Position numbers and translations under genes: made by a program. Shown here one piece after another: positions 2 through 20,092 of a stretch of DNA of 25,709 nt (positions are counted from its first letter, which is position 1; the number at the start of each line of letters is the position of its first letter). Under the pieces are notes generated by a model. It made no database searches. It was not told the DNA's origin and was given only the letters and a program-made list of their open reading frames with translations. The stretch spans positions 1 to 25,709 of the forward strand of contig PEYS01000132.1 in the NCBI GenBank assembly GCA_002763335.1. Reading direction: 5' to 3'. This DNA is from Candidatus Woesearchaeota archaeon CG08_land_8_20_14_0_20_47_9. GTDB lineage: Archaea > Nanobdellota > Nanobdellia > Woesearchaeales > CG1-02-47-18.

Positions 2-220
2 AGGGTCATAGATATAATGTACAAGTTCGGGCTCTCAGGACTTGATATGATACGGCAGATACAGAGGGAGATCATAAACCTTGATATTGCTCCGAGGGGG
101 AAGATGCACCTGATAGACCGTTGCGGAGAGGCTGAGTTTAGAATGACTGAGGGTGCTGATGAGTTTATTCAGATCGAGGCGCTGTTGAGTCAGTTTGTGT
201 TGGCTGGCATAAAATCTTGA
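2..220 (+). CDS. rfcS: Replication factor C small subunit, C-terminal part (5' end outside window)
   Basis: Frame is open from base 2. GLSGLDMIRQIQREI...GEAEFRMTEGADEFIQIEALL matches the conserved RFC-S C-terminal helical domain. Confidence 0.9.
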   Translation, partial: RVIDIMYKFGLSGLDMIRQIQREIINLDIAPRGKMHLIDRCGEAEFRMTEGADEFIQIEALLSQFVLAGIKS

Positions 221-261
221 ATGCCGAGGCGAGCCGTAAGGCGAAGCCGAGTGCATTCAAG
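216..261. repeat. Palindromic hairpin element, family A copy 1
   Basis: Arms CTTGAATGC (216-224) and GCATTCAAG (253-261) around core CGAGGCGAGCCGTAAGGCGAAGCCGAGT. Overlaps the rfcS TGA. Related copies at 7256, 20035 and 25618. Confidence 0.9.
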
Positions 262-275
262 GCTCTCTTTATAAA

Positions 276-316
276 TCCGGAAATCTTCCGAAAATTTCTG
301 GTTAAAGCATATTAAG
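276..316 (+). promoter_or_regulatory. Putative BRE/TATA promoter and upstream operator-like repeat of the Ubl operon
   Basis: AAAGCATATTAAG at 304-316 resembles other promoters in the window (AAAGCTTTTTATAA, AAAGCTTATTAA). TCCGRAAAT direct repeat at 276 and 287; CCGGAAAT/ATTTCTGG inverted repeat at 277-301. Confidence 0.5.
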
Positions 317-350
317 TTTGGATTCTGCTACTTCTGTATGGTGGTTCTAC

Positions 351-752
351 ATGACAAGCAGTAGCGACAGGACAGTGCCTATACAGTGCAGCCTCAGCAT
401 GATGGATGATCCTGAGAGGGAGCTGCGGAGGATTGTGCCTCCAGAGGCAGAGACTGTTGAGGATGTTCTATACAGGATGTTCGACCCCAGAGGGGATAAG
501 TACAACCCTCCGATGAGCGAGGGCAGTGTTAATCTGGTTAGGGAATTCTTATCATTACTGGAAGCAGCCCTCAATGGGGATCTGATCACCCTGCTTTACG
601 TAAATAAGGGGGAAGAATTAAGACTGGTGATGCCGAAAACAGGGCTTAGCTCCCTGCTTCCAAGTCCACTCTATGAATGTATTTATGGATGTATTAGCCC
701 AAAACTCTACAGCCTTGAACTAGAGCTGGTAGCAATACCAACGAGGGGGTAG
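351..752 (+). CDS. Putative ubiquitin-like (beta-grasp) protein ending ...LELVAIPTRG
   Basis: ATG 351 follows a GGTGG SD (ORF track start is TTG 318). Ubl-like order: strand VPIQCSL, strand ELRRIV, helix ETVEDVLYRMF (cf. ubiquitin DTIENVK), TLLYVNKGEEL, KTGLSSL, terminal strand SLELELV, then C-terminal RG. First gene upstream of E1- and JAB-like genes. Confidence 0.55.
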   Translation: MTSSSDRTVPIQCSLSMMDDPERELRRIVPPEAETVEDVLYRMFDPRGDKYNPPMSEGSVNLVREFLSLLEAALNGDLITLLYVNKGEELRLVMPKTGLSSLLPSPLYECIYGCISPKLYSLELELVAIPTRG

Positions 753-757
753 CAGAA

Positions 758-1744
758 TTGTCGTACCTGCTGTTTGGCATCCTGCAAGAATCAGGGATTG
801 GCCTGATCAACAACAATGGAGAGCTATACTGCCTCAGCAGGGCTAAGAGGGCATCAGAGGATTTAGTTATAAGGCTGAACAAGAGAAGCCACCCGCTTTG
901 CTATGTTGGCCCTGCAAAGCAGCTTCTGGTTGAGGGGCTTAATGAGTCTGGCGGGCCATTAAGCAGAATAGAGAACATGGAGAAGGGCTTCAAGATAGAA
1001 CAGGTCTGCAACATAATCGAGGCTGTATGCGAAACATACCTGAGAATGCTAAACCCTGACCTAGAGAAGGTGAATAAGAAAAAGGCAAAGGCAGCAAGAA
1101 GTCTGCTTAAAGACCTGCTGATCATTGGAAACAATGCCTACAAGATAAGGTATTATAACAACGTGAACAGGAATGAATTCACCCTTGACAATATTGTCAG
1201 GGAGAGCTGCCAATCTCTCAGCCAGCTTGAGGAGAGTTGCCATAAGACTCTAACATGCCCTGCCTGCTCATCAGTGCATCACCTGCAGCAATACAAATCA
1301 AGCCTCCAATTCCGGATTGCTGAATCCTATGCCATGATCTCTGTGATAATCCCATCAATGCAGTACATTGACATGGACCCAGATGATGGAAACTGCATCA
1401 AGAATGTTACTATCAGCGTAATACTTGATTTCTCTAAACATCTGAGCATTGCAAATGAGGAGCAGCCATACATCATACCAAGCCCCCTGCTAAACTTAAA
1501 CAAGGCATATGTTGAAGATCTGCCTAAGAATGCGTTCGGGCTCAGCTTTCTAACCACGCCAGCACACATACTGCTCAGCCCACCAGAGTATATCCGTAAC
1601 ATCAGCGATCCAATCGAGATGGCTGCTGAGCTTCTTCGTACAGCCCCTATTTTTCTCGACGCAGTATACCAGAAACATGACCTCAAGGGGATACAGAACC
1701 TATGCCATGATTCCAGAAGGCTTCTTGAGGGGGGGGCATCGTGA
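758..1744 (+). CDS. Hypothetical protein with a C/H cluster and a possible C-terminal E2/UBC-like domain lacking the catalytic Cys
   Basis: TTG start after GAGGGGG SD. CHKTLTCPACSSVHH motif. The C-terminal ~115 aa has a strands / P-x-I-x-x-SPLL / GLSFL / final helix layout similar to UBC HPN...ICL...helix. CDS is well supported; function is inferred from pattern and context. Confidence 0.45.
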   Translation: MSYLLFGILQESGIGLINNNGELYCLSRAKRASEDLVIRLNKRSHPLCYVGPAKQLLVEGLNESGGPLSRIENMEKGFKIEQVCNIIEAVCETYLRMLNPDLEKVNKKKAKAARSLLKDLLIIGNNAYKIRYYNNVNRNEFTLDNIVRESCQSLSQLEESCHKTLTCPACSSVHHLQQYKSSLQFRIAESYAMISVIIPSMQYIDMDPDDGNCIKNVTISVILDFSKHLSIANEEQPYIIPSPLLNLNKAYVEDLPKNAFGLSFLTTPAHILLSPPEYIRNISDPIEMAAELLRTAPIFLDAVYQKHDLKGIQNLCHDSRRLLEGGAS

Positions 1745-3093
1745 AGCCACTAAGAGCTGCTGTGCTTGGAGCAGATCTTATGACAGCCTACCTTATAAGC
1801 GCCATCTGCTTTAACAAGGGTGTTGAGGTTGCCATAATCTCAGAGAAGCCCTATGACAAGGGACACTTAGGCGAGGGTAACATAATCCTGCTCCCTGAAA
1901 GCAAGCAAGAGCTGCAGGTTTATGCCATAAGAGAGGGCATCAAAAAGCTAAACCCTGAATGCGAGGTAAATGCAGTCCCCATAAGACCATGTTACGCTGC
2001 TTCCCTAAACAGAATTCAACCAGACATAGTAATTGACCTCACAAGGGAACCAGAACAAAAGGAATTCGCAGAATGGTACTGTAAAAGAAATAAAAAGCCC
2101 CTTATATCGTCAATAGCAGGTCATGAGTCTGTACTTGTAATCTCAACTACTCCGAAAGGAGCAGACTCTATCTACAAGGACATAGGTTATGGGGACTCCT
2201 GGGCAGGGCTTGAAAAGACTGCAATGGCAGGGGCAGGGGCAGGGATCGCTGCTCTATACTTATCAGAGCCAGATTCAGATCAGTTGTTTTACTTCAGTCC
2301 AAACAAGCTCATCCAGGTTAATGGCTGCTTTGATATAAATGCTCTTGAAGAGATAAGGGACGAGAAGGTAAACAATGCAGTTGCTCAGTCGCCGCTAGAA
2401 AAAAGGCTATGTCTTGTTGGTGGCAGAGGCATGCTCTCAATGCATGTTGCGCTTGCAGCCCTGCTTGAGGGGGCAGCAGGGGTTGATATTTACGATAACG
2501 GGGCTGGGATGCCATCAGAACTCCAGGATAAGCCATTCTCCATTGAATTGCTCTATAAGCCACAAAAAAACAGCCATGCAGAGACTGTAAACATCATTGA
2601 GAAGAATGCAGCATACAAGAATGCTGCAAGTGGCGCTTACGCAGCAGTATTCGCAACTGGCTTTGAGCCAGGGGATGGCTTTGCGCTGAAATCACTAATT
2701 CTGAATGGCCCCCCAGTTATTGGTGGCCTTATAGGCCCGAGCTACAATGGCAAGATAATATCCATGCATAAAGGTCCGTGTTTGGTCTGCCAGCTTGCAC
2801 CAAACGCAAACCTTGATACACTACGCAAACAGGATGATGGCCTTAAAGAATTGGTATCAACCTACAGGAAGCTGCCTGAATACAGCGCAGCTTCAGGCCA
2901 GGAAGAGGATTGGCCTAGTTGCCTGAGAAGCTACCAGGTGACATCTATGATTATGGCGAGCCTGATGGTAAACAGGCTGAGAGGCTTATCAGGCAATGCC
3001 CAAACACAACAGCTTATTGTTAAACCAGGCTCTTCGAGAACACTGAGGTTCTTCCACTCAAAAGAATATGGGCGGGGGTGTGCCTGCAATTAG
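1741..3093 (+). CDS. E1-like enzyme with two tandem ThiF/MoeB domains, degenerate adenylation motifs
   Basis: Domain 1: RAAVLGA, IKKLNPECEV, PDIVIDLT, YCKRNKKPLIS. Domain 2: RLCLVGGRGMLS...VDIYD, GPCLVC, PSC (C394), terminal CAC. GTGA overlap with the previous stop. Confidence 0.8.
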   Translation: MKPLRAAVLGADLMTAYLISAICFNKGVEVAIISEKPYDKGHLGEGNIILLPESKQELQVYAIREGIKKLNPECEVNAVPIRPCYAASLNRIQPDIVIDLTREPEQKEFAEWYCKRNKKPLISSIAGHESVLVISTTPKGADSIYKDIGYGDSWAGLEKTAMAGAGAGIAALYLSEPDSDQLFYFSPNKLIQVNGCFDINALEEIRDEKVNNAVAQSPLEKRLCLVGGRGMLSMHVALAALLEGAAGVDIYDNGAGMPSELQDKPFSIELLYKPQKNSHAETVNIIEKNAAYKNAASGAYAAVFATGFEPGDGFALKSLILNGPPVIGGLIGPSYNGKIISMHKGPCLVCQLAPNANLDTLRKQDDGLKELVSTYRKLPEYSAASGQEEDWPSCLRSYQVTSMIMASLMVNRLRGLSGNAQTQQLIVKPGSSRTLRFFHSKEYGRGCACN

Positions 3094-4663
3094 ATCCGCA
3101 GCAGCTGGTTTTGGAGCGGTAATCGACAGCCTGTTCAGAAGGCGAGCTGGCCAGAGGGGCAGCTCCAGGGCAAAGAATAGCTCTCCCATCAGCCTCAATG
3201 TTAGATTGGCAGGCTACATAAAGACGAGGGTTGTATCATTTATAGTTAACAAGCTCTCAGAGGAGGTTTATGGTGAGCCAGCCCAATGCTTCGGCCTGAT
3301 CTGCATACCCAGAGAACAGATTGAAGAGAGGGAATTAAGCCGGGAATTAAGCCTGGAGCAAATGCTGATAACAGAGCTTGTTCCATCTACAACAACATTC
3401 AGTGGCCTGCCCTCATACAATAGGCATAACCTGGAGGGGGCAATAGAATACTCTCAAGATTCAGGGCTTGTTCCTGTTGGGCTGTGGCATACCGCTAACC
3501 TGGAAAAGAGCTGCTTTGAATGGGATACTGGCTTCTATAGCTGGGCGTTTAGGGACAGCAGAATGGCGAGACTAGGCACAGGAAACCTGTTTCTGCAGGG
3601 CCTGTCAATGCTCTTCAGCAATGCAAGCCTGCTCTGCGAGAGTAAATACAACAGGCAGGGAGACATATACTACAGCAGGGGCAGCGGTGTGGATGCGCAT
3701 GCCCCATTCAGGTTTAACTTTGTCATGGATGGCTTGCCGTTACTGGACTATTATTCTTTAATCCGAGCAATAGCGAATGGATTTGATTTTGGCAGCAGAA
3801 GGATTGGCAACCAGGTGGAGGGTGTAATAGATCGCATAGTAGAAGAGCTTAGAATAAACTTCGGAAACCTTGTAATCGAGTCCCAGAGCCAGGAGGATAG
3901 TTCTACCTACACGCCCTCTGATTCCGAGGTCGTTTACCATGATGAGCAGCAGACAACCCAGCCTGAGTGCGAGGATGCTGTAGTTGAACCAGTAACTGAG
4001 AAAGTAGCTGAAGAGGTGGTGGCTGAAGAGCAATATGGGACATCAGAAGCCAGATCTGCTGGCATGGAAGCAACAGCTCTTGACCTGTTCATCAACACCT
4101 ACGGGCTGGTGAATAAGCCCCTAACAGGGTTTATGAGGGCATATTACCAGGGCCTAGAGGCAGAAAATGCCTGTGAGCTCTATGAAGTTGCGAGAATAAT
4201 TGCAGGTGATTATGTTAAGGCAGATGGCAGAAGGGCCTGGCTCTGGGGTGATAGGGTCTCAGAGCTTGAAAGGATCTGTGGCTCAAGCAGATTCTCAGAT
4301 CATGCAGATCATGAGGAGCTGATCATGCTCCTTGACATGGCTGCTGCATCCAGCTATCTCAGGTATGCCCATAGGGAGGCTGCCAGCAGGCTGCAGTCAC
4401 TGGCTGACAGCTACCTTGCCATGCATGAAGATGATGGCCTTGGCATGGCTATGAAGATAATGGTTGAGATTGTTGACGGCAGGGATAAAGACTATTGGAA
4501 GTGGGAGAAGCGCGCAGACACGATATCAACTGTACTTGGCAACCTCACCATTGAAAAGCTGTCGTCCTATGACCGTATTATGCTAAGGCGGGCTGCTGTG
4601 CACGCATCATCTAAGGGGATGTACAACAAGCGGATTGGCCATTTATTCGGTGTAGAGGACTAA
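3068..4663 (+). CDS. JAB/MPN-domain protein (probably non-catalytic) with acidic linker and C-terminal two-copy helical repeat
   Basis: PAQCFGLI and LVPVGLWHTAN...EWD match the MPN ExxGxL and VGWxHSH...SxxD positions with substitutions. Acidic stretch aa ~271-325; repeated WxWxxR motifs. Confidence 0.65.
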   Translation: MGGGVPAIRSAAAGFGAVIDSLFRRRAGQRGSSRAKNSSPISLNVRLAGYIKTRVVSFIVNKLSEEVYGEPAQCFGLICIPREQIEERELSRELSLEQMLITELVPSTTTFSGLPSYNRHNLEGAIEYSQDSGLVPVGLWHTANLEKSCFEWDTGFYSWAFRDSRMARLGTGNLFLQGLSMLFSNASLLCESKYNRQGDIYYSRGSGVDAHAPFRFNFVMDGLPLLDYYSLIRAIANGFDFGSRRIGNQVEGVIDRIVEELRINFGNLVIESQSQEDSSTYTPSDSEVVYHDEQQTTQPECEDAVVEPVTEKVAEEVVAEEQYGTSEARSAGMEATALDLFINTYGLVNKPLTGFMRAYYQGLEAENACELYEVARIIAGDYVKADGRRAWLWGDRVSELERICGSSRFSDHADHEELIMLLDMAAASSYLRYAHREAASRLQSLADSYLAMHEDDGLGMAMKIMVEIVDGRDKDYWKWEKRADTISTVLGNLTIEKLSSYDRIMLRRAAVHASSKGMYNKRIGHLFGVED

Positions 4664-4665
4664 GA

Positions 4666-5568
4666 ATGTTTGCTCGAAAAGCCAAGATAAGCTATGAAGA
4701 CGAGGCTAGAAGCAGGTTCGACAGCATGCTTGACCCACGAGAGCATGTTGATCGCTTTTACGGGCCTGAAGTGAATCCATCCTATTGCTTGCCCCTTGAT
4801 ATTCTTGCGCCGAGGGTGCCTGTAGAAAAGGTTGTTGAGATCTGCTCCAGGAAAGACCCCTTAAACTGGGCAGCGTTTATTGATTACTTTGCATACCTTT
4901 CAGGCCTTATCAGGGGCCTTATCCAAGTCGAAGATAAAGAAACCAGCCAGGTAAGCCCTGAGCTTTGCATACTGGCATCTGATGAGAGGCTGGAAGAGAT
5001 GCTGAAAAAATACTGCAGCCTGACTCTCATTAATCTCTATAACTCACTTATTAAGATCGATAATGATTACAGTTTTCTATTCCAATTGAGTGAGACAGGA
5101 CAAGGATTTGCAGGGGGAGGGCAAACAGAAAGATTATCTTCCCACCAGTCTGAGACCGGTGGAAAGACTAATCTGGAAAAAATGCGAGGAGACCGAAGCT
5201 TTAGCGAGCAAACACGCCCTGTGACTGGGGGTGTCTCCGAGCATTTTGACACAAGCCAGGATATACCTATGCCAAGAGCATACACACCACCGGTCATATT
5301 CACAATAAGCGATACGCTTGGGATTCCTGTGCATACCTTGTATCAGCTTATCATGGTAATGGAGATTCCAGAAAACCTGACCTCACTCTTCTTCATAAAG
5401 CCCTATAACCCACTGCTGCTGGATCCTAAAAGCCTCTTGAGGATTGAGAAGAGGGATAAGCAATACAAGCAACTCATTGATCAGGGCTTCTCACGCTTTG
5501 ATATTCAAGCGTTAAATGCTGCACTGGCATACATGCCCAGGAAAAAGACTGCTGTAAAGAGGTTTTAG
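4666..5568 (+). CDS. Hypothetical protein, last gene of the Ubl-like operon
   Basis: 300-aa ORF starting 2 nt after the previous stop, GAGG SD. Two predicted ordered regions separated by a G/S/T/E-rich linker. No family recognised. Confidence 0.8.
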   Translation: MFARKAKISYEDEARSRFDSMLDPREHVDRFYGPEVNPSYCLPLDILAPRVPVEKVVEICSRKDPLNWAAFIDYFAYLSGLIRGLIQVEDKETSQVSPELCILASDERLEEMLKKYCSLTLINLYNSLIKIDNDYSFLFQLSETGQGFAGGGQTERLSSHQSETGGKTNLEKMRGDRSFSEQTRPVTGGVSEHFDTSQDIPMPRAYTPPVIFTISDTLGIPVHTLYQLIMVMEIPENLTSLFFIKPYNPLLLDPKSLLRIEKRDKQYKQLIDQGFSRFDIQALNAALAYMPRKKTAVKRF

Positions 5569-5589
5569 AAGTACTCAGTTAAATGAAAA

Positions 5590-5694
5590 ATCCAGCCATG
5601 GCGCAGGCGAAAGCGCTTCCCCTTCGGGATGCCGAGCAGGACATTTTGCGAAGCCTTGCTGAGCAAAATGGCCAAACCTTATGGATGGCTGGAT
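5590..5694. repeat. Multi-branch structured intergenic element
   Basis: Outer stem ATCCAGCCAT (5590-5599)/ATGGCTGGAT (5685-5694). Inner hairpins GCGC/GCGC, TCCC/GGGA and CATTTTGC/GCAAAATG. Contains AGGCGA, GCCGAG and GCGAAGC words shared with family A. Confidence 0.7.
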
Positions 5695-5813
5695 AGATCA
5701 CATCCTACACAAAGAACTCAATTAGGGCTTATCTTGACTCCAAAAAGAAATGACAAATGAGTGACAATCCCTTAGAGGATAGCAGCCTTATCAATCAGAA
5801 TATGGCTTGAACA

Positions 5814-5864: not shown

Positions 5865-6074
5865 ATGGGGAGGATAAAGACTCAGCTGATAAAATCAACA
5901 GCCTTCAGGATTATGGAGGAACACGGGGATAAGATTACCAACGACTTTGGGAAGAACAAACTCCTGATTCAGGGGTTTGTTGACATACCCTCCAAGAAGA
6001 TCAGGAACATCACCGCGGGTTATGTGACAAGGCTGTTCATAATGGGTAAGAAGAAAGAAGGCGCTTGGGTATGA
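5865..6074 (+). CDS. rps17e: 30S ribosomal protein S17e
   Basis: MGRIKT...DFGKNK...SKKIRNITAGYVTR signature; strong SD. Confidence 0.95.
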   Translation: MGRIKTQLIKSTAFRIMEEHGDKITNDFGKNKLLIQGFVDIPSKKIRNITAGYVTRLFIMGKKKEGAWV

Positions 6075-7090
6075 TAGAGTTCGAGACCGAGGCAGAGGTC
6101 AGGAAGCTTAATATCCGCGAGGAGTTTGATATCCAGAAAATAGAATTAGCAATAGCCCAGAACATTGACAGGGCTGACATGGTGAACATATTCAGCCCTA
6201 CACAGGGGCTTGTTGAGCACTTCACAAGGCATGGCTACTTCTATAGGCCGAACAAGGTCACATACAAGATGGATGTCCCGTTCTCTGAATCCGAGTACAT
6301 TTCAAAACTAAAGAAGAACAAGAGAAAGACCATAAAGAAGGCTGTTAAGAGGTGCAGGGAGTGCGGGATCAGCATACTAAAGGAGCCGCAGCTAAGCGAG
6401 GTGTCATACCGCGGATGGCTTGATGTCTACACTGAAAACATAAACGGTAAGAAGAGGGGCATAATAAGAACAGGGCTTGAGCGCTATTACAGAAGCAAGG
6501 ACATGATGGCCGGGATATTTGCAGTGAAAGACAACCACATCATAGGAGGCATAATACTGAGGCGGAAACACCTCAGATCAGGGCTTAGGAAGATTTCATT
6601 CTCATTCGCCTCATCAAGGAAGGAATATTTCAAAAAGGGGGTGAACGAGCTCCTGAACCTAAAAGCAGTGCTCTTCGCAAGGGAGCTGGGCTACGACCAC
6701 CTCGAGAGGGGCATGGATTCAAACCTCTACGGGCATTACCTCTCACCAGGACTTTACCTCTTCAAAAAGTCATTCGGCTTCCGCATAACACCGAAAAATC
6801 GCTTTGGTGAGGTACTCACCACAATAACAAACTACGCGCCATTCCAGGATATCATCTTCTTTGTCAGCCACAACAAAGAGAAGCCGGAGGGAAACCTGAT
6901 ACTCAAAAACGATATTGACAGCACGAGGATTGCAGAGTTCGTATCAAAGTACCTCGAAAGGCTCAATGTTTATAAAGTTGAAGATAATACCATCAGAAAG
7001 GTTGATGAGATAATAATTCCGAGAGGTGTGATGATATGGCAAAGGGAGAAACCGCAATACCAAAAGCACCCGCTGCAAGAATACTCCTGA
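6071..7090 (+). CDS. FemAB/BioF2-like GNAT-superfamily acyl- or aminoacyl-transferase
   Basis: ATGA overlap with the rps17e stop. LKKNKRKTIKKA, GVNELLNLKAVLFARELGY and GLYLFKKSFG are typical of the C-terminal GNAT domain of FemAB-like proteins. Confidence 0.7.
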   Translation: MIEFETEAEVRKLNIREEFDIQKIELAIAQNIDRADMVNIFSPTQGLVEHFTRHGYFYRPNKVTYKMDVPFSESEYISKLKKNKRKTIKKAVKRCRECGISILKEPQLSEVSYRGWLDVYTENINGKKRGIIRTGLERYYRSKDMMAGIFAVKDNHIIGGIILRRKHLRSGLRKISFSFASSRKEYFKKGVNELLNLKAVLFARELGYDHLERGMDSNLYGHYLSPGLYLFKKSFGFRITPKNRFGEVLTTITNYAPFQDIIFFVSHNKEKPEGNLILKNDIDSTRIAEFVSKYLERLNVYKVEDNTIRKVDEIIIPRGVMIWQREKPQYQKHPLQEYS

Positions 7091-19923: not shown

Positions 19924-20092
19924 CTTAAAAGTTCTCGCCCTGAAGAGCGAGTTACCCACGAACTTTTAAGCATGATGGAATGCAAAAAGAGCGTTAATCA
20001 AGCATGCCTCCCAAAAGTAGCAGTTCCGACATAAGAAAACCTTGAATGCTGAGGCGAGCCGTAAGGCGAAGCCGAATGCATTCAAGGTTTTC
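19924..20092. repeat. Composite repeat block: nested hairpin plus conserved 5' module plus family A copy 3
   Basis: CTTAAAAGTTC/GAACTTTTAAG arms (19924-19970) enclose CTCGCCCTGAAGAGCGAG. AAAGTAGCAGTTCCGACATAAG module. 15-bp arms GAAAACCTTGAATGC/GCATTCAAGGTTTTC at 20035-20092. Modules recur at 25416-25657. Confidence 0.85.

Follow-up and report, generated by a model that had tools for sequence, protein, structure and literature searches.

A five-gene operon was analysed on the 25,709-nucleotide (nt) contig PEYS01000132.1 (hereafter the window, to whose full length all coordinates refer), which belongs to a 1.2-Mb, 92%-complete archaeal genome. Five intact open reading frames (ORF1–ORF5; Table 1) of 133–531 codons, all on the plus strand, span 5.2 kb between the C-terminus of the replication factor C (RFC) small subunit, encoded by rfcS (Rep_fac_C, 2.4e-14), upstream and rps17e (rpS17e, 9.3e-14) downstream. 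The intergenic spacings from ORF1 to ORF5 are +5, −4, −26 (or −14 with an alternative GTG start) and +2 nt, Shine–Dalgarno (SD)-like G-rich runs lie upstream of all five starts, and the starts are coupled. Public gene calls on identical groundwater contigs (e.g. GCA_001872825.1, MNWV01000002.1) give the same five genes, and the remaining two plus-strand frames carry 63–113 stops each across the region. The original prediction for this locus had described co-oriented, overlapping or closely spaced ORFs with SD-like starts between rfcS and rps17e, encoding a ubiquitin-like protein (Ubl), an E2-like carrier protein, a tandem E1 activating enzyme, a JAB protein and a fifth protein, in a probable DPANN archaeon. 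The layout and both flanks were confirmed, and the DPANN affiliation was supported by the record titles of same-order relatives (Woesearchaeota, Nanoarchaeota and Pacearchaeota). The genome is the sole member of its taxonomic family and all relatives lie at inter-family distance, which partly explains why the ORFs are orphans at the sequence level.

Weak matches of ORF3 in two same-order genomes led to operons of like layout, which encode a small protein, a protein of ~430 amino acids (aa), a JAB protein (Prok-JAB, 4.7e-4), a tandem ThiF protein (Pfam, 9e-56, in two stretches) and large accessory proteins. A family profile of this E1 gave matches at E ≤ 1e-20 in 167 of the 401 genomes sampled from the order; many of the proteins are full-length, and some genomes carry several copies. 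In addition, a pattern scan of GTDB species genomes returned 278 further loci with titles mostly of Woesearchaeota, Nanoarchaeota or Pacearchaeota, some of Aenigmatarchaeota and Njordarchaeota and a few of bacteria; one carrier is archaeon GW2011_AR15, whose genome is complete (CP010425.1, locus L082). Neighbourhood maps of ~95 loci showed a constant core of the small protein, an ‘E2-position’ protein, JAB and E1, followed by variable genes (coiled-coil giants, a Ser/Thr kinase and others). The gene order of the window, small protein–E2–E1–JAB, is that of a minority (L084, L121, L123, L132, L138, L139, L143 and L146). In at least a dozen loci, including L047, L053, L085, L088, L089, L092, L102, L104, L108, L113 and L117, the Ubl gene is directly preceded by one for a PAN-like AAA ATPase (AAA plus proteasomal OB domain). 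This frequent adjacency of an unfoldase suggests that the family’s tag feeds an unfoldase or the proteasome, and it points to proteostasis rather than defence.

Common as the cassette is in the order, neither its tag nor its ‘E2’ could be matched to a family in Pfam, NCBIfam, PADLOC or the PDB. The E2-position proteins share a Y-x-H-P-x(~10; 9–13)-I-C-x-G motif with a near-invariant Cys; none of the 55 sequences compared with Pfam (ORF2 and 54 counterparts) was matched, and the profile of this family found no E2 and no other match among PDB sequences. For the E1 profile, the nearest PDB entries were SUMO-E1 UBA2, MccB, UBA1/6, MoeB and ThiF. PADLOC assigned the relatives to Cap2 models, through the generic E1 part only, and to weak JAB models. 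No paper on a DPANN cassette of Ubl, HP..C protein, JAB and tandem E1 came up in the library searched, and the cassette is apparently undescribed.

ORF3 links the window to this family. It matched a profile of 90 family E1s, built without ORF3, with an E-value of 3.6e-20 and an independent six-sequence E1 profile with 1.3e-12, and BLASTP alignments to single relatives extended over both domains (1e-11 for residues 5–363; 2e-8 for residues 42–450). These scores place ORF3 firmly in the family as a homologous tandem-ThiF E1, as had been proposed. With Pfam, the ThiF match was below cut-off (E 1.4e-4, 21.6 bits, residues 59–147), so the ThiF motif is weak there and strong against the family profile. 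This was the only Pfam match among the five proteins, and NCBIfam and PADLOC added nothing of use. A word-indexed homologue search with ORF3 returned essentially itself only, and full HMMER against 1.84 billion representatives gave two marginal matches (~8e-4). In the E1 tree, ORF3 is sister to a clade of nine loci (L119/121/123/132/138/139/143/144/152; support 0.70) that have short E2s (282–342 aa) and, mostly, E1 before JAB. Three independent characters, namely gene order, E2 length and the E1 tree, place the operon in this E1-before-JAB, short-E2 sub-group. The terminal branch of ORF3 is the longest of the tree (2.58 vs. a family median of 0.42); ORF3 is ~20% identical to the family E1s, which are 32% identical among themselves, whereas the neighbouring RFC is 49–68%, mostly 58–68%, identical to its relatives. 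The operon is thus very probably an extremely diverged member of a widespread Woesearchaeota-type DPANN cassette with E1-before-JAB order. The original prediction was right about the strong divergence, but the operon does not stand alone: the cassette is widespread in the order, and the window carries an aberrant version of it.

ATP binding and the stabilisation of adenylation in MoeB, ThiF and UBA enzymes depend on a conserved Arg, a conserved Lys, the Gly loop and the Arg finger; the Cys4 site has a structural role. Columns of the second ThiF domain that are 96–100% conserved in the 90 E1s are substituted in ORF3. The Gly loop GAGxxG (97–100% conserved) reads GGRGML, with the second and third Gly gone; D.D reads D.G; NLNRQ (NxNRQ) reads ELQDK, with Asp in place of Arg; the invariant Lys is Gln, and a further Arg is Lys. 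Furthermore, the N-terminal RYxRQ (Arg-finger) helix is absent, only four open codons lying upstream. Kept are the Mg-binding Asp of VDN, the C324/C327 CxxC, the C-terminal CxC and the ‘SC’ Cys of the crossover loop, which is 99% conserved in the family. On this residue pattern, ORF3 is likely to be unable to adenylate the tag. The same genome encodes a canonical 242-aa ThiF on contig C122 (220 bits in Pfam); no active tandem E1, E2-like protein or cassette JAB was found elsewhere in this 92%-complete genome, where only this single-domain ThiF was found.

The first gene of the operon was identified as a Ubl from its alignment, its C-terminus and its predicted fold. ORF1 is colinear with 56 first-gene proteins of the family (MAFFT). 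The family proteins end in a hydrophobic strand followed by G or GG and 0–10 further residues (..LEIEV....GG, e.g. LELVLLNDIAGG and LDLEVYARG), and ORF1 ends in LELELVAIPTRG directly before the stop codon, so that its C-terminal Gly is already free and nothing would have to be trimmed off. AlphaFold2 (AF2) modelled ORF1 with a predicted local distance difference test score (pLDDT) of 76.9, a predicted template modelling score of 0.69 and the order β1-β2-α1-(helix)-β3-β4-β5; this model used the multiple sequence alignment of the family and so depends on it. Almost all of the top-ranking Foldseek matches of the model in the PDB were Ubl domains, at E-values of 0.04–1; they include the TBCE UBL (E 0.038, probability 0.94), the UBL of USP15/11, the Caldiarchaeum ubiquitin (6fno_D, 6fj7), SUMO1, FAT10 and UBX. 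ORF1 therefore models as a beta-grasp ubiquitin-like protein with an extra helix, in line with the original assignment.

The assignment of ORF4 as JAB-type was supported at the level of alignment and domain architecture. Against a profile of the JAB proteins that follow E1 in relatives, ORF4 gave a full-sequence E-value of 7.8e-12 (hhalign probability 81%, E 1.2e-5), and it clearly shares their C-terminal domain. This W-x-W-x2-R helical domain, duplicated in ORF4, has an invariant G, W-x-W and R; it occurs downstream of E1 in genomes G021, G299, G001 and G067 and as a stand-alone protein in G114, G319 and G153. The C-terminal domain had no Pfam match, its profile gave coiled-coil noise only against the PDB, and a word-indexed search with this region returned essentially itself only. 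In the N-terminal domain, Q73, H141 and A143 fall in the E/H/H columns of the family in four different MAFFT alignments, columns in which no more than one family row departs from E/H/H, and the local contexts are alike (QCFGLI in ORF4 vs. ECxGxL in the family; VGLWH vs. IGxWH). In the JAMM motif of ORF4, Q73 thus takes the place of the catalytic Glu and HxH has become H141-T-A143, with altered Asp spacing; S158 falls in the family Ser column in two of the four alignments. As aligned, ORF4 appears to lack the catalytic Glu and one Zn-binding His, and the MPN motif that had been called recognisable is present only in this degenerate form.

As a separate observation on the WxW domain, the ~110-aa ‘ILSGDYVKxDGKRAWxWxDR...NKYLRxKH’ unit also stands alone, away from E1, in proteins of 246–293 aa from other Woesearchaeota. 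These proteins adjoin AsnC, LysM or deacetylase genes (L075:1768–2649, L076:8045–8803 and L077:1905–2645).

ORF2 occupies the E2 position. A profile of 73 E2-position proteins, from which ORF2 was excluded, matched it with an E-value of 1.3e-4 in two colinear stretches (residues 20–55 and 102–165), both in the non-catalytic N-terminal part. ORF2 aligned end to end with the short-E2 sub-group (alignments A6/A7), where P285 corresponds to the HP proline, the His is D284 and the Cys column holds R294; this arrangement was stable for 10–30 sequences. The A6/A7 alignment is preferred over larger alignments that put C316 in the catalytic-Cys column, since in the latter either ~20 residues would have to be deleted after the Cys or ~18 inserted ahead of it. 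The HP..C motif is absent from ORF2, and the carrier Cys has probably been lost. The AF2 model had an overall pLDDT of 64.7, with 80–91 for an N-terminal beta/alpha domain and 50–76 for the core, a strand-rich segment followed by helices. Foldseek against the PDB returned neither a UBC domain nor another fold match for this model (best E 1.1), and the active site could not be located at such low confidence. ORF2 had no Pfam, NCBIfam or PADLOC match, and a word-indexed search with its alignment returned essentially itself only. Position and the profile match to the N-terminal part thus lend the E2-like proposal weak support; the E2 label is unproven for ORF2 and, strictly speaking, for the whole family too.

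Two further points concern ORF2 itself. Residues 161–175 (window 1238–1282) form a lineage-specific C-H-x4-C-x2-C-x3-H-H cluster with no family counterpart and low AF2 confidence, which may be a zinc knuckle. The last ~25 residues of ORF2 (VYQKHDLKGIQN...) were considered as a frameshifted E1 N-terminus (RYxRQxxIxxWDQ); this candidate was set aside, as the first Gly motif lies ~10 residues farther away than it should and so short a segment allows no test.

Relatives chosen by profile, and not by motif, keep the three catalytic motifs: N[RK]Q in 20 of 22 E1s, HxH..S..D in 23 of 25 JAB proteins and HP..C in 17 of 19 E2-position proteins. The E1, JAB and E2-like proteins of the window match none of them, and what is new here is this catalytically eroded variant of the cassette. 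We favour the reading that the whole operon is non-conjugating yet functional, to which we give a probability of roughly 0.45–0.5. More specifically, and tentatively, the complete pathway of E1, E2-like protein and JAMM protein may have been turned as a unit into pseudo-enzymes that a reduced symbiont genome has retained in one coupled operon, where they would act as a machine for binding Ubl non-covalently. The cascade of adenylation, thioester and isopeptide formation would no longer be run, and ORF1–ORF4 would form a non-catalytic assembly. ORF2 would be a Cys-less, UEV-like version of the family’s carrier protein; non-covalent binding of the Ubl, or of a partner, would fall to the E1 shell with its zinc site, the MPN-minus domain and the E2-like fold, and the duplicated WxW domain of ORF4, together with ORF5, might act as adaptors. 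Such an assembly could serve, for instance, as a scaffold or regulator, or it might be a decoy directed at the Ubl system of a host or virus.

Prokaryotic Ubl cascades (Bil, Cap2/Cap3, Caldiarchaeum and Asgard) are relevant both to immunity and to how eukaryotic ubiquitination arose. If the products of the window operon are expressed and assemble, a whole prokaryotic pathway would have evolved into pseudo-enzymes, the surfaces needed for non-catalytic Ubl recognition would be marked, and UEV, MPN-minus and inactive-E1 subunits would have a prokaryotic counterpart, though one without active paralogues. If mere decay is under way instead, the operon illustrates how cassettes of this kind disappear.

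Several findings weigh against the pseudo-enzyme reading, for which the evidence comes from a single lineage and, in part, from alignments without statistical significance. All public contigs of the operon are 99.9–100% identical. The profile score of ORF1 alone is non-significant (E 0.22), as are those of the ORF2 core (E 0.07–0.12) and of the ORF4 N-terminal domain (hmmsearch E 0.22; hhalign colinear, E 0.015, probability 3%). Profiles of 20 and of 56–88 sequences and of the sister clade only likewise gave no significant score for these three regions (single-sequence hhalign, hmmsearch), and the Ubl, E2-core and N-terminal JAB assignments rest on alignment anchoring, synteny and a family-guided AF2 model. 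In the larger alignments C316 occupies the catalytic-Cys column of ORF2, so that the Cys may persist. Moreover, the terminal Gly of ORF1 and the Mg-binding Asp, loop Cys and zinc site of ORF3 are retained, as expected if activation still mattered; the argument from the Gly is qualified by its codons, as the Arg-Gly sequence AGGGGG doubles as the SD of ORF2.

These retained residues are the basis of the best-surviving alternative, a still-active, highly diverged conjugation system that uses non-canonical residues or is activated in trans by the canonical 242-aa ThiF. With a tag that already ends in a free Gly, no JAB processing would be needed, or ORF4 could use a one-His metal site; the Lys after the lost Arg could substitute in ORF3, and C316 in ORF2. 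The fully preserved operon structure and the presence of the ThiF on C122 are also consistent with activity. However, ORF3 lacks the ATP-contacting Arg (R→D) and Lys (K→Q) present in all 90 relatives compared, its Gly loop and N-terminal Arg-finger helix are gone, ORF4 has Gln for the catalytic Glu and Ala for one Zn ligand, and the preferred, spacing-consistent alignment gives ORF2 neither HP nor Cys. An ordinary active cascade is disfavoured by this loss of catalytic residues with retention of structural ones, and we regard continued conjugation as unlikely.

A decaying remnant, in which the cassette lost its function in this lineage and drifts with products that have no role, is more doubtful still. 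It would account for two or three enzymes having lost their catalytic motifs together, for the longest branch of the E1 tree and for a mobile palindromic repeat that landed within ORF5, although copies of this 126-nt repeat are also found in frame within genes that evidently function. All five frames remain open over 5.2 kb despite divergence to ~20% identity, and the coupling by starts, SD runs and overlaps is intact. Reduced genomes usually delete dead DNA, and the present one has only 1.2 Mb. The zinc Cys, the fold-defining Gly and Asp and the WxW domain are kept while catalytic residues are lost. Simple decay is disfavoured by this selective pattern in two or three enzymes and by five coupled ORFs in a reduced genome, and the non-conjugating, functional operon remains our preferred reading.

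The insertion and defence role suggested in the original prediction would correspond to a horizontally acquired anti-phage island of the Bil or CBASS (cyclic oligonucleotide-based antiphage signalling system)-Cap2 type bounded by hairpins, which is highly improbable: the four-component logic of BilABCD (Ubl, E2, JAB and an E1 of inactive and active adenylation domains; PMC10557695) and several cassette copies per genome in some relatives speak for it, but PADLOC matched none of the five proteins and only the generic E1 part of Cap2 in relatives, the cassette has spread widely through the order by vertical descent and often lies beside a PAN-like AAA unfoldase, and a catalytically dead set could not conjugate. 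A mobile island was also rejected, as GC content shows no compositional break across the window and both hairpins belong to genome-wide repeats. In none of 30 relatives does rps17e lie within 1.5 kb of rfcS, so no conserved gene pair was split. The original prediction had depended on a beta-grasp fold for ORF1, a UBC fold for ORF2 and joint conservation of the genes in other genomes; the first and the last of these were found.

Among known systems, BilABCD of Types I and II combines a Ubl (BilA), an E2 (BilB), a JAMM deubiquitinase (BilC) and an E1 of inactive and active adenylation domains (BilD), and in the Bil Ubls a conserved Gly precedes a short tail, which is cleaved off by the deubiquitinase (Chambers et al., PMC10557695; 10.1101/2023.09.26.559546). 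The component set is the same, and most DPANN relatives share the Bil gene order. In contrast, no sequence-level link was found for the Ubl or E2 in Pfam, PADLOC and PDB searches, the DPANN E1 has a short crossover loop where the Bil E1 has a ~80-aa CYS domain, the host is an archaeon with no defence context, and the active sites of the window operon are eroded. Caldiarchaeum subterraneum and Asgard archaea carry eukaryote-like Ub-E1-E2-RING-Rpn11 clusters (PMC5654768), likewise archaeal operons with a beta-grasp modifier, E1, E2 and JAMM protease. The window operon differs in having no RING E3 and in its lost catalytic residues; furthermore, the E2 of those clusters is a recognisable UBC, whereas the second gene of the window matches no UBC profile or fold.

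The DPANN cassette itself shares with the window operon a homologous E1, the C-terminal domain of the post-E1 protein, the strand-plus-Gly end of the Ubl, gene content and tight coupling, and the Ubl-E2-E1-JAB sub-group (L132, L138, L139, L143, L121 and L123) shares its order. The window differs in its duplicated WxW domain, an orphan fifth gene with a repeat insertion, the absence of an adjacent PAN-like ATPase, substituted catalytic motifs in E1, JAB and probably the E2-like protein, and the longest branch. In eukaryotes, UEV proteins (Mms2, Tsg101), MPN-minus proteins (Rpn8, CSN6) and inactive E1 halves (SAE1, NAE1) keep the fold without the catalytic residues and bind Ubls non-covalently or act as scaffolds. 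We propose these as a possible functional analogy for the window operon, although they work beside active paralogues and in the window’s genome only a single-domain ThiF was found. SAMP/UbaA of Haloferax and the ThiF/MoeB sulfur-carrier systems use a homodimeric single-domain E1 and no E2. They have in common with the window a ThiF-fold activating enzyme and a beta-grasp protein ending in Gly; ORF3 differs as a tandem pseudo-dimer without the ATP-binding residues.

Table 1. Features of the operon and its flanks in window coordinates (residues refer to the named ORF).
Feature	Position (nt)	Residues	Strand	Basis
Hairpin directly after rfcS stop codon	216..261		.	copy of ~52-nt dispersed repeat
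Candidate archaeal TATA box TTTATAAAT	268..276		+	inferred from sequence alone
ORF1, 133 aa, predicted Ubl	351..752		+	family alignment, AF2 model, C-terminus
ORF2, 328 aa, counterpart of the family’s ‘E2-like’ second gene	758..1744		+	position and weak profile match
ORF3, 450 aa, tandem-ThiF E1	1741..3093		+	family profile, BLASTP
ORF3 inactive-type N-terminal domain	1753..2499	~5–253	+	alignment
ORF3 C-terminal adenylation-type domain		~222–450	+	alignment
ORF4, 531 aa (527 from GTG at 3080), predicted JAB-type	3068..4663		+	C-terminal domain profile, alignments
ORF4 N-terminal MPN/JAB-like domain	3170..3877	~35–270	+	alignments
ORF4 acidic linker		~275–330	+	
ORF4 W-x-W-x2-R helical domain, copy 1	4058..4396	331–443	+	profile 7.6e-10
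ORF4 W-x-W-x2-R helical domain, copy 2	4412..4567	449–500	+	profile 0.0036
ORF5, 300 aa, orphan, translationally coupled to ORF4	4666..5568		+	no family match
126-nt (42-codon) palindromic repeat in frame inside ORF5	5127..5252	~155–196	.	genome copies
105-nt hairpin downstream of ORF5	5590..5694		.	copy of second dispersed repeat family

The hairpins described on each side of the operon exist and fold far better than shuffled sequences, with −26.5 kcal/mol (z −6.2) for 212–265 and −47.7 kcal/mol (z −4.5) for 5586–5698. The ~52-nt repeat of the upstream hairpin has 39 further copies in the genome at 82–96% identity, including window 20036–20087, and the 105-nt repeat downstream has 30 further matches at 77–98% identity. 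Both hairpins are genome-wide intergenic repeats, neither operon-specific nor island borders; as each belongs to a dispersed family of about 30–40 copies in the 1.2-Mb genome, they mark no insertion. The ~52-nt copy begins inside the last bases of rfcS.

ORF5 had no Pfam, NCBIfam or PADLOC match and, its repeat segment aside, a search of 400 genomes of the order brought up no relative. The 126-nt repeat (fold −47.2 kcal/mol, z −5.4) has four full-length copies elsewhere in the genome at 82–95% identity (C24:342–466, C176:824–949, C154:9105–9232 and C75:3611–3747) and more than ten partial ones, many at contig ends; other assemblies of the locus break at 5152, within the ORF5 copy. Other full copies sit in frame within RmlD-like reductase, Polysacc_synt_2 and 4Fe-4S genes, a behaviour that resembles Rickettsia palindromic elements, here in a DPANN archaeon. 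Beyond the operon, a 341-aa ORF at window 6065–7090 shows a faint FemAB-like match (E 0.053) and overlaps rps17e and a histone-fold gene.

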